Part shown: positions 31,826 to 34,262 of the stretch, piece by piece | Layout: each line of letters starts with the position of its first letter | How positions within the stretch are numbered: the first letter of the stretch is position 1 | Origin: Escherichia phage vB_EcoP_DE5 | Direction: 5' to 3' (one strand) | Sequence record: MW741821.1 | Length of the DNA stretch: 64,000 nt | Notes under the pieces: model-generated | Seen by the model: only the letters and a program-made list of their open reading frames with translations | Databases searched by the model: none | What the model was told of the DNA's origin: nothing | Made by a program: the position numbers and the translations under genes

Positions 31826-32884
31826 ATGGCTAATCCAACTTTATTTGTATCGTATGACCAGAATGGTAAAAAACTTTCTTTTGCTAACTGGATTTCTGTT
31901 CTGTCCCCTCAGGATACCCCGTTCGTATCTATGACCGGTAAAGAGTCTATCAACCAGACTATCTTTAGCTGGCAGACCGATGCACTGGCAAGCGTTGACG
32001 GTAATAACGCACACGTCGAAGGCTCTCGTGCTGAAGACGGCGAAATGAAACCGACCGTTATCAAATCCAACGTTACTCAGATTCTGCGTAAGGTTGTTCG
32101 TGTTTCTGATACTGCTAACACCACCGCTAACTACGGTCGTGGTCGTGAACTGATGTATCAGCTGGAGAAGAAAGGTAAAGAGATCAAGCGTGACCTCGAG
32201 AAAATCCTTCTGTCCGGTCAGGCTCGTACCGACGTTCTGGCTGACCAGTATCTGACTAACTCTGCAACTGATCCTGCTGTTGTTGGTCTGAATGACACCC
32301 ATGCAGCTCGTAAGACTGGTGCATTCCAGTTCCTGTGTGCTCACGGTGGTCTGGCTGGTGGCGTTGTTGACAAGACCAAGAATGGTCCTGCTGACCCGGA
32401 CACTGGTGCAGTAACTGTTAAAGTTGCACAGAATGCTTCTAACCCGACCACTAACATTGGTTTCGACGAAGCTGATATCTTTGATATGACTCTGCAACTG
32501 TATACCGCTGGTTCTGAAGCAGATATCATCATGATTAACCCGGCTCATGCTAAGATCTTTGCTGGTCTGCAAGAAAATACTCAGGGTTCACGTAAGCGTA
32601 TCTTTGAGAACACCAAGCAGTTCATCTACGAAGTTAACAGCATCACTGACCCGCTGGGCCAGAGCTACAAAATCATCGTTAACCGTTGGATGCCTACCGA
32701 TGCAGTTTACTTCTTCCGTAGCGCTGACTGGACTCAGATGGTTCTGCGTGCTCCGAAACGTACTGAACTGGCTAAAGACGGTTCTTACGAGAAGTGGATG
32801 ATTGAAATGGAAGTTGGTCTGCGTCACCGCAACCCGTATGCTTCCGGCGTTCTGTTCACTGCTGCGGGAAAGGTGGTGGCGTAA
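31826..32884 (+). CDS. major capsid protein (352 aa)
   Basis: Position after scaffold; strong RBS; biased codon usage; followed in -1 frame by Ig-like ORF. Confidence 0.6.
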   Translation: MANPTLFVSYDQNGKKLSFANWISVLSPQDTPFVSMTGKESINQTIFSWQTDALASVDGNNAHVEGSRAEDGEMKPTVIKSNVTQILRKVVRVSDTANTTANYGRGRELMYQLEKKGKEIKRDLEKILLSGQARTDVLADQYLTNSATDPAVVGLNDTHAARKTGAFQFLCAHGGLAGGVVDKTKNGPADPDTGAVTVKVAQNASNPTTNIGFDEADIFDMTLQLYTAGSEADIIMINPAHAKIFAGLQENTQGSRKRIFENTKQFIYEVNSITDPLGQSYKIIVNRWMPTDAVYFFRSADWTQMVLRAPKRTELAKDGSYEKWMIEMEVGLRHRNPYASGVLFTAAGKVVA

Positions 32885-32895
32885 CAGTAGACAGT

Positions 32896-33408
32896 GTGAC
32901 TGTTAGCCCTGCGTCTTTAGCAAGTCTAGAGACAGGGGCTACTCGGCAGTTCACTGCAAGCGCGGAGAAAAGTGATGGTTCTACCGAAACAACTGGCTTT
33001 ACTTGGTCAGTGACAGGAGGTGGTTCTATCACTCAGTCGGGTTTGTATACTGCTCCGAGTGCGTCTCAATCCACTGATGTATCCATTACTGCAACTTTAG
33101 AAGGTGTTTCTGGTACAGCAACCATTTCTGAAATTGTTGCTCCTGCTCCTACTATTGTGAGTCGTGGGCCAATTACAGGTAAAGTAGGTGGTACTACCAC
33201 TAACTTCAACACCATGTTTACTGTAACTAATTCTATTGCTGATGATTACACACTTGTTGTAACTCCCGCAGAAGCTGGTACAATAAGCGCTAATAATTCG
33301 TTAAAATTAGATGCTGCTGCAAGTGGCGAAGTTACTGTTCAAGCAAGTTTGACAGCTGACCCATCCATCAATGCAACATGCACTTTTACTGGTGTAACAC
33401 CTGCTTAA
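32896..33408 (+). CDS. Ig-like (Big_2-type) domain ORF, probably expressed as a -1 frameshift extension of the capsid protein
   Basis: Ig-like pattern (TRQFTASAEKSDGSTETTGFTWSVTGGGSITQSGLYTAPSA). The -1 frame is open from 32806. Slippery heptamer G_GGA_AAG at 32866-32872 lies in the capsid frame. No good RBS for the GTG at 32896. Confidence 0.55.
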   Translation: MTVSPASLASLETGATRQFTASAEKSDGSTETTGFTWSVTGGGSITQSGLYTAPSASQSTDVSITATLEGVSGTATISEIVAPAPTIVSRGPITGKVGGTTTNFNTMFTVTNSIADDYTLVVTPAEAGTISANNSLKLDAAASGEVTVQASLTADPSINATCTFTGVTPA

Positions 33409-33415
33409 AACTAGA

Positions 33416-33439
33416 CCCTGCCTTCGGGCGGGGTTTTTT
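33416..33439 (+). terminator. intrinsic terminator
   Basis: CCCTGCC-TTCG-GGCGGGG hairpin followed by TTTTTT. Confidence 0.7.
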
Positions 33440-33458
33440 CGTTTTAAGACCTATACAA

Positions 33459-33509: not shown

Positions 33510-34262
33510 ATGGCAATGCCAGATGTTCAATACCCCATCAATACCTATGGGTGGCTAAAGAAGGCCGTGGCCCTCTGGGCAGATAGGGACGATGACGAAT
33601 TTGTTAATCAAATTCCAAACTTTATTAACTTTGCAGAGAAAGAGATTTATCGTAACTTACGTATCCCTCCTCTGGAAAAAGAAGTGTATTTAGATATTAA
33701 AGATGGAGTAGCTTACATTCCTCCTGATTACTTAGAAGCTCAATGGATGATGAGAGCCAAAGATGGTACAATCTTCCAAGTAACATCTCCTGAAGAGATT
33801 AGCTATCGTAGACAGCATGGAACAATTAACCCATCTCATTGGAATAACCAACCTGTTAATTTTGCTCGTTTCGGTAGTCGTTTCATTTTCTACCCTAGCA
33901 TTGAAGCAGATACTCCTGTTTATCCTGATGATGGAAGTCCTTTGATTCCAGCAGAAAACTCAGTAATTCTTAGCTATTATGCAGATCCACCGGAATTCCA
34001 TGAAGATACAGATACTAGTACTATTCTCACTATCGCACCAGAGCTTCTTCTGTATTTCACCCTACGTCATGCTTGTCTGTTTGTTCAAGATGATAATGGA
34101 GTTCAGAAATGGTCCGCATTAGGAAAAGCTATCCTTGATGAAATGGTAGAGCAGAATAAGAAACAAGAGTACTCAGGTTCACCTATCGCAATTCCGAATA
34201 ACATGACTCGACTTCAGAGCAGCTTGCCTGATATTTATGGTATTCGTACTTCTCGTGTATAA
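33510..34262 (+). CDS. virion structural protein (possible head-tail adaptor)
   Basis: First gene after capsid terminator and promoter motif; positional inference. Confidence 0.4.
   Translation: MAMPDVQYPINTYGWLKKAVALWADRDDDEFVNQIPNFINFAEKEIYRNLRIPPLEKEVYLDIKDGVAYIPPDYLEAQWMMRAKDGTIFQVTSPEEISYRRQHGTINPSHWNNQPVNFARFGSRFIFYPSIEADTPVYPDDGSPLIPAENSVILSYYADPPEFHEDTDTSTILTIAPELLLYFTLRHACLFVQDDNGVQKWSALGKAILDEMVEQNKKQEYSGSPIAIPNNMTRLQSSLPDIYGIRTSRV

Follow-up and report, generated by a model that had tools for sequence, protein, structure and literature searches.

The major capsid gene of Escherichia phage vB_EcoP_DE5 (MW741821.1) very probably encodes two capsid proteins by means of a programmed -1 ribosomal frameshift at the heptamer G_GGA_AAG, a reading to which we assign a probability of about 90%. 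The window, that is the whole stretch of 64,000 nucleotides analysed here, comes from a Kuravirus, a phiEco32/ES17-like coliphage whose DNA is 97-99% identical to that of phiEco32-type Kuravirus relatives. A sequence-only reading had proposed that the frameshift fuses an Ig-like domain to the capsid C-terminus, and this proposal is supported by the conservation of the heptamer, a coding signature in the -1 frame, an unconserved start codon of the downstream ORF, and in-frame paralogues in relatives. We regard the DE5 frameshift as real, as rightly interpreted by that reading, and as already known, since publications describe it for phiEco32, SU10, Paul, Privateer, and YF01 and the GenBank records of Paul and Privateer carry it as an annotation. 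Comparison and published work on the same phage genus also support the view that the longer isoform is a minor one; that virions contain a longer capsid species is taken from the literature on related phages.

Table 1 Features at the 3' end of the DE5 capsid gene
Feature	Position	Strand	Basis and details
Major capsid protein gene, zero frame (SU10_MCP family)	31826..32884	+	ORF list; Pfam PF17236; 352 aa, 38.7 kDa
Slippery heptamer G_GGA_AAG, putative -1 shift site	32866..32872	+	Sequence, phase in capsid frame
-1 frame extension after the proposed slip	32872..33408	+	178 codons + TAA
Candidate stimulatory hairpin A	32873..32912	+	Single-sequence fold, 18-sequence pairing
Predicted Ig-like domain 1, Big_2-like	32887..33126	+	Extension residues 6-85; AlphaFold2, Foldseek, weak Pfam Big_2
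Hairpin ACAGT-GTG-ACTGT of the sequence-only reading	32891..32903	+	Not conserved
Conserved long hairpin C	32896..32954	+	Minimum-energy structure, RNAalifold consensus, covariation
Predicted Ig-like domain 2, beta-sandwich without Pfam hit	33151..33399	+	Extension residues 94-176; AlphaFold2, tandem Ig-like PDB matches
Intrinsic terminator after the extension	33413..33446	+	10-bp stem 33413-33436, 6 G-C pairs, then T-run

The slip site in the capsid gene

The capsid ORF closes with ...FTAAGKVVA and a TAA at 32882-32884, the end that had been stated for it. Its product matches the SU10-type major capsid profile PF17236 over profile positions 7-289 of 292 with 258.8 bits (E = 9e-77), above the curated cut-off of 24.1 bits, and the capsid proteins of phiEco32, ES17, and TH38 are 99-100% identical to it. 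The heptamer GGGAAAG lies where it had been placed and is phased as G_GGA_AAG in the capsid frame; after its AAG come three sense codons (GTG-GTG-GCG) and then the stop. No other X_XXY_YYZ heptamer occurs within the capsid ORF. Among the 24 in-frame heptamers of this kind (Y = A or T) in window ORFs of at least 100 aa, it alone opens onto a long -1 ORF (178 codons; the runner-up has 30), and it alone reads past the stop of its own ORF. GGGAAAG was unchanged in 20 of 20 distinct Kuravirus sequences, with a distance of 9 or 12 nt to the capsid stop, and third positions varied in five of the nine codons preceding it in the same set. Two marks of programmed -1 frameshifting are thus present, namely a heptamer phased in the zero frame and a shift site kept in relatives at its synonymous positions as well.

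G_GG.A_AA.G ranks in the top three motifs for efficiency in E. coli (PMC4066793), but G_GGA_AAG without a stimulator gives only about 0.3% frameshifting there (PMC4066793), and a stimulator is therefore expected. An upstream SD-like stimulator was rejected; inspection by eye found no such motif in about 30 nt 5' of the heptamer.

The -1 frame past the capsid stop

Between 32806 and 33405 the -1 frame has no stop codon, and it ends with TAA at 33406-33408, which verifies the reported run from 32806 into a 170-codon ORF; as listed, this downstream ORF (32896-33408, 170 aa) starts at a GTG. Capsid residues 1-349 plus the extension would make a protein of 527 aa and 55.9 kDa, which is 17.2 kDa larger than the 38.7-kDa capsid protein. 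The junction peptide predicted earlier, ...FTAAGK followed by GGGVTVDS..., is correct from the sequence, and in longer form the predicted trans-frame peptide reads ...GVLFTAAGK followed by GGGVTVDSVTVSPASLASLETGATR.

Between 32884 and 32970, codon differences in the -1 frame were 1103 synonymous and 582 non-synonymous, whereas the two other frames gave 215/1389 and 87/1426; across 18 sequences, one stop codon was counted in the -1 frame versus 42 and 31 in the others. By this substitution pattern, the 29 codons 3' of the capsid stop behave as protein-coding in the -1 frame and in no other, and the extension is, on the same kind of evidence, under purifying selection. An ORF that overlaps the capsid gene in the -1 frame and continues beyond its stop under coding selection, with no conserved start codon, is a further mark of programmed -1 frameshifting.

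The best of the rival explanations, although a very improbable one, is a separate gene, in which an unattached Ig-like decoration protein (about 170 aa) would start at GTG 32896 and bind the capsid non-covalently. The ORF list does give a 170-aa ORF from this GTG, most GenBank records (including those of ES17, phiEco32, and SU10) annotate the extension as a separate 'Ig domain containing protein', and SU10 gp10 has been taken as a possible minor capsid protein that was lost in purification (PMC9509320). However, the sequence-only reading had found no convincing ribosome-binding site for the downstream ORF, and indeed no SD-like motif is present in the 20 nt before GTG 32896 (GTGGCGTAACAGTAGACAGT). 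Other clades have GTA or ATA in place of this GTG. The first -1-frame start codon varies: the clade of DE5 has GTG at +14, other clades have ATG at +86, and a number of Kuravirus sequences have it upstream within the capsid ORF. The ATG at 86 nt past the capsid stop falls inside the first Ig domain, and about 33 residues before it are kept as protein despite the absence of a conserved start codon. The conserved start codon and ribosome-binding site that a Hoc-like decoration protein would have of its own were thus not found here.

Predicted fold of the extension

The AlphaFold2 model of the extension consists of two tandem beta-sandwich domains (pLDDT 96.6), with the strands of domain 1 running from residues 6-12 to residues 79-85. 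The top Foldseek match was the tandem Big_2 domains of Leptospira LigA (8gyr, E = 2e-11, 26% identity); further matches were Big_2-CBM56 and the Ig-like domains of the SU10 nozzle, and RB49 Hoc was also among them (3shs, E = 1.5e-4). Against Pfam Big_2 (PF02368), residues 6-83 of the extension scored 16.7 bits (E = 0.007), below the gathering score of 22.8 bits, so that a Big_2 assignment from sequence alone was dropped and the Ig-like call rests on the structure model. The extensions of some relatives do exceed this cut-off (Privateer 67 bits, L009 119 bits, and L016 26.7 bits). Of the earlier description of the ORF as Ig-like and Big_2-type, the Ig-like fold therefore stands by the model, but the Pfam cut-off for Big_2 was missed. 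According to the model, the extension forms a tandem of two Ig-like domains. The first predicted beta-strand (residues 6-12) starts upstream of the GTG 32896 codon, which is residue 9, and this also argues against a free protein starting at that codon.

Conservation among Kuraviruses and distant relatives

In the distinct Kuravirus sequences, the extension past the capsid stop is 174-540 codons long, and SU10 alone is truncated, its extension ending after 11 codons because of an apparent 1-nt insertion. Paul and YF01 have extensions of about 540 codons, and DE5 has the short 178-codon type with two domains, as do phiEco32 and ES17. Distant relatives, with capsids only 55-66% identical, repeat the same arrangement with a shifty A_AAG at the junction. 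In Privateer, G_GGA_AAG stands immediately before the TAA; one soil/metagenome lineage has G_GTA_AAG, followed 6 nt on by a GC-rich hairpin (z = -4.9), and another distant lineage has A_AAA_AAG at the same capsid junction. A scan of metagenomes yielded few additional lineages. Every lineage with an extension ORF has it in the -1 frame with an adjoining shifty site, which speaks against a separate gene, and no in-frame A_AAR was found at the capsid end in lineages without the extension.

A second capsid paralogue, 585 codons long, is present in Salmonella phage 7-11 and in the metagenome locus L026, and in phage 7-11 it joins SU10_MCP and Big_2 in a single frame according to Pfam. In Aeromonas phage APT65, too, a capsid paralogue is extended in frame, and this extension gave no Pfam hit. 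Such paralogues also speak against a free decoration protein, and from their occurrence in relatives the capsid-Ig fusion protein as such appears to be under selection. These in-frame capsid and Big_2 fusions came from the analysis of loci; a protein homology search with the extension returned Kuravirus-type ORFs and a few weak Big_2 proteins, with no in-frame fusions.

For phiEco32, the primary paper, which we cite second-hand, is said to describe a frameshifted capsid product. The GenBank record of Paul (MN045231) gives the gene as a join with the note 'Frameshift at GGGAAAG; Frameshift in PhiEco32 ... (PMID 18294652)'. In Privateer, two bands were seen and supported by mass spectrometry, and the authors of that study report the frameshifted product for phiEco32 and SU10 too (PMC7881722). 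The same frameshift has been described for YF01 and 'other group phages' (PMC9965538). For SU10, slippage at GGGAAAG with forms of 38.5 and 55.4 kDa was reported (PMC4281155), and cryo-EM found neither the longer band nor Ig density (PMC9509320). The lack of the long form in the cryo-EM work fits the truncated -1 frame of SU10 but conflicts with the earlier SU10 proteomics (PMC4281155).

SU10 appears to be a case of a non-functional relic, in which chance or recent ancestry accounts for the survival of the heptamer and of the open -1 frame, and no significant long isoform is made. It is viable with its truncated extension, its capsid is uniform by cryo-EM (PMC9509320), and the low frameshifting of the bare heptamer (PMC4066793) would suit such a relic. 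For DE5, however, this explanation is even harder to maintain than a separate gene, as the extension is by its substitution pattern under purifying selection, is intact in all distinct Kuravirus sequences examined except SU10, is modular and reaches an expanded length of up to 540 codons in several of them, is modelled with very high confidence, and recurs in relatives with quite divergent capsids. Least credible of all is a fusion by RNA polymerase slippage or stop-codon readthrough, for although both are generally known to yield C-terminally extended phage structural proteins elsewhere (reviewed in PMC5009743), the longest homopolymers at the site are GGG and AAA, far below known slippage runs, and readthrough of TAA 32882 would meet TAG two codons on (TAA CAG TAG) in a zero frame that encodes no Ig domains.

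RNA structures downstream of the slip site

A stimulator would be a 3' structure 5-9 nt downstream of the heptamer or an upstream SD-like sequence, and we found two candidate structures. In hairpin A, the core stem pairs UAACAGU (32882-32888) with ACUGUUA (32899-32905), the lower stem pairs GGC (32878-32880) with GCC (32906-32908) beginning 5 nt after the heptamer, and more weak pairs reach out to 32873/32912. Its spacing is canonical, but it is a weak structure in the single-sequence fold (-13.8 kcal/mol, z = -1.8). Across 18 sequences, 98.3% of its cells are paired and 8 of its 10 pairs are invariant, with no covariation; all four synonymous sites of the core stem are invariant, whereas most loop columns vary. 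Hairpin C, which begins 23 nt downstream of the heptamer, is the minimum-energy structure of the single sequence (-34.5 kcal/mol, z = -2.5), with 98.6% of cells paired and compensatory changes in three pairs (20 cells), a covariation score reached by 0 of 500 shuffles. The two hairpins are mutually exclusive because both use 32899-32908, and over codons 1-36 of the extension all invariant third positions lie within the stems of one or the other.

Hairpins A and C are better supported than the hairpin ACAGT-GTG-ACTGT of the sequence-only reading, and for both the stimulator role is that of a candidate. The latter hairpin, which had been put at about 32887-32899, is actually 4 nt away from that position; only 76.7% of its cells are paired across 18 relatives, with pairs 4 and 5 broken in 8-9 of them, and it was rejected as a stimulator because it is not conserved, has only 5 bp, and lies 18 nt beyond the heptamer. 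For SU10, a stem-loop CTGCTGC-GGGAAAG-GCGGCGG has been proposed (PMC4281155); it was rejected as well, as it contains the slip site, would be melted by the ribosome there, and therefore cannot be a 3' stimulator. Its counterpart fold in DE5 has z = -0.2. The strong terminator reported 3' of the extension is real and is also annotated in the SU10 and Paul records. There is no terminator-like site between the capsid stop and the extension, and thus both are on one transcript.

Proposed mechanism and significance

In the mechanism that we propose, most ribosomes would decode GGA-AAG (32867-32872), continue through GTG-GTG-GCG-TAA, and terminate there with the capsid protein of 352 aa. A minority would move back one base on G_GGA_AAG: the tRNA-Gly in the P site would exchange its GGA codon for GGG, and the tRNA-Lys(UUU) in the A site would exchange AAG for AAA. 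Translation would then follow the -1 frame from 32872 to 33405 and give an isoform of 527 aa, in which two bacterial Ig-like domains in tandem are joined to capsid residue K349. We infer that the long isoform is co-assembled at low copy number in the prolate head and displays its Ig-like domains outside the head, where their likely role would be weak adhesion to carbohydrate-rich surfaces.

Nothing in the DE5 capsid frameshift should surprise a specialist. Its value for annotation is that the correct product would be a capsid-Ig fusion instead of free-standing ORFs from arbitrary start codons. Fraser et al. reportedly described in 2006 that Ig-like domains are attached to phage structural proteins by recoding. 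DE5 would be one more well-supported case of phages adding Ig-like domains to structural proteins in this way (PMC5009743). Within this one capsid family, three solutions for making a short and a long capsid protein can be seen, one with a canonical heptamer, one that combines a weaker heptamer and a strong hairpin, and one with in-frame duplicates.

ES17-like phages have been explored for gut decolonisation and bind mucin, so that a possible display of Ig-like domains on the head is relevant to them, and ES17 carries the same intact frameshift cassette as DE5. The ES17 study attributed mucin binding solely to the tail fibre, with no Ig-like fold involved. The capsid Ig-like domains of ES17-like phages, DE5 included, might nevertheless contribute to mucin binding, and the frameshift may be controlled by the mutually exclusive hairpins A and C, of which C covaries. 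Both ideas go beyond the published accounts cited here, and we give them a rather low probability.

Comparison with known systems

phiEco32, SU10, Paul, and YF01 share with DE5 the genus, gene, heptamer, phase, stop distance, and type of Ig-like extension, and there is no essential difference from DE5; the length of the extension varies, and that of SU10 is truncated. Proteus phage Privateer (Grimontviridae) is also similar to DE5 in its SU10_MCP-type capsid, GGGAAAG, and -1 extension, which has 168 codons and I-set and Big_2 as its Ig-like domains. However, its capsid is 57% identical, its heptamer abuts the TAA without overlap codons, and the predicted downstream structure is another one.

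Gene 10A/10B of T7 and T3 resembles the DE5 case in that a -1 frameshift near the end of the capsid gene yields a minor, longer capsid protein that co-assembles (PMC5009743), and the T3 extension is Ig-like, as in DE5 (PMC5009743; PMC9965538). The capsid family of T7 and T3 is, however, unrelated to that of DE5 at the sequence level, and in T7 the P-site is of the G_GU type and the stimulator involves the terminator more than 200 nt downstream (PMC5009743), whereas DE5 has the canonical G_GGA_AAG. Phages 7-11 and APT65 have the same capsid family as DE5 with a short and an extended capsid protein, the long form of 7-11 being SU10_MCP plus Big_2, but their extended form is encoded by another gene, an in-frame paralogue that has its own start codon and lacks a frameshift site. 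How much of each isoform is made would presumably depend on gene expression in these two phages and on recoding in DE5. Finally, T4/RB49 Hoc also places tandem Ig-like domains on the phage head, as we infer for DE5, and its presumed role is weak adhesion to glycans or mucus (BAM model, summarised in PMC7885116). Hoc is translated separately and binds assembled capsids, whereas the DE5 domains would be covalently attached by recoding.

Results

The capsid gene and its -1 frame

Judged by its sequence, this region belongs to a Kuravirus, i.e. one of the phiEco32/SU10-like prolate E. coli podophages: positions 31826-33450 share 99.1% identity with phage FS2B, 98.8% with ES17 and 96.9% with phiEco32, and the gene order (portal, small ORF, scaffold, major capsid protein, Ig-like ORF, terminator, adaptor, tail fibre) is the same in annotated relatives. 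The 24.9-kb UNVERIFIED record MZ417522.1 (L045) carries the name 'Mycolicibacterium phage J1' and a Microviridae taxonomy; it matches this capsid region at 98.8% identity and almost certainly comes from an E. coli phage, as a mislabelled or contaminant fragment. Nothing supports the antisense ORF within the capsid gene, which probably arises as a side effect of the codon usage of that gene.

Features of the capsid region (window coordinates)
Feature	Position	Remark
SU10-type major capsid protein	31826-32884	Pfam PF17236, E = 9e-77
Antisense ORF, 243 aa	31841-32572, minus strand	wholly within the capsid gene
Slippery heptamer GGGAAAG	32866-32872	phase G_GGA_AAG in the capsid frame
Capsid stop TAA	32882-32884	...FTAAGKVVA*
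Candidate hairpin A, extended form	32873-32912	fold -13.8 kcal/mol
Hairpin A core	32882-32888 with 32899-32905	UAACAGU/ACUGUUA
Candidate hairpin C	32896-32954	single-sequence minimum-energy structure (-34.5 kcal/mol, z = -2.5) and RNAalifold consensus
Terminator	33413-33436	10-bp stem; a T-run comes next
SU10 adaptor	33510-34262	next gene; Pfam

A sequence-only reading had proposed that a -1 ribosomal frameshift fuses an Ig-like domain to the capsid protein, and its account of the capsid stop, of the heptamer and its phase, and of a -1 frame open from 32806 was accurate; that frame reaches 33405. Slippage would yield ...FTAAGK-GGGVTVDS..., a product of 527 aa and 55.9 kDa (capsid protein, 38.7 kDa). 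Among window ORFs of at least 100 aa there are 24 in-frame canonical heptamers, and this one alone opens onto a long -1 ORF (178 codons; the runner-up has 30). The terminator noted after the extension is present, with its stem at 33413-33436, and no intrinsic terminator was found in the interval from the capsid stop to the extension. The overlap between heptamer and stop (32873-32881), read as VVA* and GGG in its two frames, varies more than any other stretch of the region, in the window and its relatives alike. Indels of 3 nt are tolerated there, so that it measures 9 or 12 nt; in the zero frame the tails are VVA, VAA, AAA, AGA, AVAA, VAAA and VVAA, and the -1 frame has GGG, GGS or GSGG.

Conservation and the question of an independent start

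For comparison, 45 loci related to this one were gathered from IMG/VR, metagenomes and GenBank phages. All 20 distinct Kuravirus sequences carry the heptamer unchanged and correctly phased, 9 or 12 nt upstream of the capsid stop, and third positions vary in five of the nine codons preceding it. The extension is open in all of them except SU10, running 174-540 codons beyond the capsid stop.

The rival explanation is an independently initiated downstream gene, for which the window offers the GTG at 32896, the sole start codon of the -1 frame before 33000; as had been noted, it has no convincing RBS, GTGGCGTAACAGTAGACAGT in front of it containing no SD-like motif. In other clades this GTG is replaced by GTA or ATA, and a start codon first appears 86 nt beyond the capsid stop, within the first Ig domain, which is why gene callers give truncated proteins beginning MSDGST.... 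The stretch upstream of that start codon is still conserved as protein. Across 32884-32970, codon differences are 1103 synonymous and 582 non-synonymous in the -1 frame, against 215/1389 and 87/1426 in the other frames, and stop codons number 1 (SU10) against 42 and 31. Because the start codon varies, the start-less stretch is conserved and the coding pattern is that of the -1 frame, an independently initiated gene is ruled out as a general explanation.

The Ig-like fold of the extension holds in a highly confident AlphaFold2 model built from 21 sequences (pLDDT 96.6; two beta-sandwich domains, residues 6-85 and 94-176), but the Big_2 assignment is sub-threshold in Pfam (16.7 bits vs 22.8). 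In this model the first strand (residues 6-12) begins upstream of the GTG codon, which is residue 9. The top Foldseek match was to the tandem Big_2 domains of Leptospira LigA (E = 2e-11, 26% identity); further matches were to other tandem Ig-like proteins, among them RB49 Hoc and the Ig-like domains of the SU10 nozzle.

In SU10 the extension stops after 11 codons, owing to a 1-nt insertion, and the truncation has likewise been noted by others (PMC9965538). The insertion, with accompanying substitutions (ACACTGTCTACTG vs ACAGTGTGACTG; L002, KM044272, locus 2541-2600, about window 32890-32900), falls in the loop of hairpin A. A 55.4-kDa capsid form was listed in the 2014 SU10 proteomics, whereas the 2022 cryo-EM showed neither band nor density; sequencing error or a difference between stocks could account for the mismatch.

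Candidate stimulatory structures

In E. coli, G_GG.A_AA.G ranks among the three -1 motifs of highest efficiency (PMC4066793), because tRNA-Lys(UUU) is shifty on AAG. Without a stimulator, however, frameshifting on such motifs reaches only about 0.3% (PMC4066793), and one is therefore expected at the capsid slip site. The hairpin first proposed, ACAGT-GTG-ACTGT at about 32887-32899, really lies at 32891-32903 and was rejected as not conserved: pairing holds in 77% of cells across 18 relatives, and 8-9 of the 18 sequences break two of the five pairs. A stem-loop proposed for SU10 (PMC4281155) was also rejected as a 3' stimulator, the slip site itself lying inside it.

Two mutually exclusive candidates were found. 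The lower stem of hairpin A (GGC/GCC) starts 5 nt after the heptamer, a canonical spacing, and 98% of cells are paired; it is without covariation evidence because it is invariant across sequences. Hairpin C starts 23 nt after the heptamer, with 98.6% of cells paired and three compensatory pairs, its covariation score being reached by 0 of 500 shuffles. In the first 36 codons of the extension (window 32872-32979, 18 relatives), the 10 invariant third positions are all stem positions of A or C and the remaining 26/26 vary, a post hoc and partly circular pattern that is suggestive of RNA-level constraint where the Ig-coding region begins.

Discussion

The invariant heptamer, the -1-frame coding pattern and the lack of a conserved start support a frameshift that fuses Ig-like domains to the capsid C-terminus, the hairpin first proposed apart. 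More distant relatives, with capsid proteins 55-66% identical, follow the same logic with different parts. In Proteus phage Privateer, G_GGA_AAG adjoins TAA and leads into a 168-codon Ig-like extension (I-set and Big_2), and it is annotated as a join and as 'verified via mass spectrometry'. A soil or metagenome lineage (L009-L012, L024, L025, L028) instead carries G_GTA_AAG 3 nt upstream of the stop (in L009 at about 3912-3918), which is non-canonical and shifty in its A_AAG part only. Its extension runs 167-169 codons beyond the stop in L009-L011, L024, L025 and L028 (Big_2 match E = 8e-35 in L009), where a 6-bp hairpin, GCGCCC-CUAC-GGGCGU, stands exactly 6 nt after the heptamer, followed by a second long hairpin; in L009 and L010, the two folded, this GC-rich hairpin gave z = -4.9 and -3.6. 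This lineage appears to couple a weaker slip site to a stronger structure. L012 has an 88-codon extension, with no significant structure downstream of its slip site (folding z = -0.6). The heptamer of L014 is A_AAA_AAG, and no shifty A_AAR was found at the capsid end in the extension-less lineages L013, L027 and Vp_R1.

Salmonella phage 7-11, metagenome locus L026 and Aeromonas phage APT65 have two to four tandem capsid paralogues, one extended in frame at its C-terminus and therefore giving a long isoform without recoding. In 7-11 and L026 this second paralogue has 585 codons; that of 7-11 (L034 2501-4255) joins SU10_MCP and Big_2 in a single frame (Pfam). APT65 (L036 3477-4760) has four paralogues, and its in-frame extension had no Pfam match. 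A terminator lies between the short and long paralogues of 7-11. These in-frame fusions argue that the fusion protein is the selected product and frameshifting one among several ways of making it.

The closest relative with a name is ES17, a therapeutic candidate that binds mucin and heparan sulfate. At its locus (L044, NC_070984, 467-1009) the heptamer is intact; the extension, of 178 codons, is one residue different from that of the window and is annotated as a separate gene. Binding has been ascribed to the tail fibre only, and the Ig-like fold was stated not to be involved (PMC7885116).

The addition of Ig-like domains to phage structural proteins by frameshifting is a general phenomenon (reviewed in PMC5009743), and the capsid frameshift is already known for Kuravirus: the Privateer paper reports that the frameshifted product had been seen in both phiEco32 and SU10 (PMC7881722), the YF01 paper described heptamer and extended isoform for the whole group (PMC9965538), Mirzaei et al. 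also treated the feature in this genus, and the join is annotated in the GenBank entry for phage Paul, which cites PMID 18294652. The conserved alternative structures A and C, the three ways in which a single capsid family has evolved a long capsid isoform, and the intact frameshift cassette of ES17 may go slightly beyond these published accounts.
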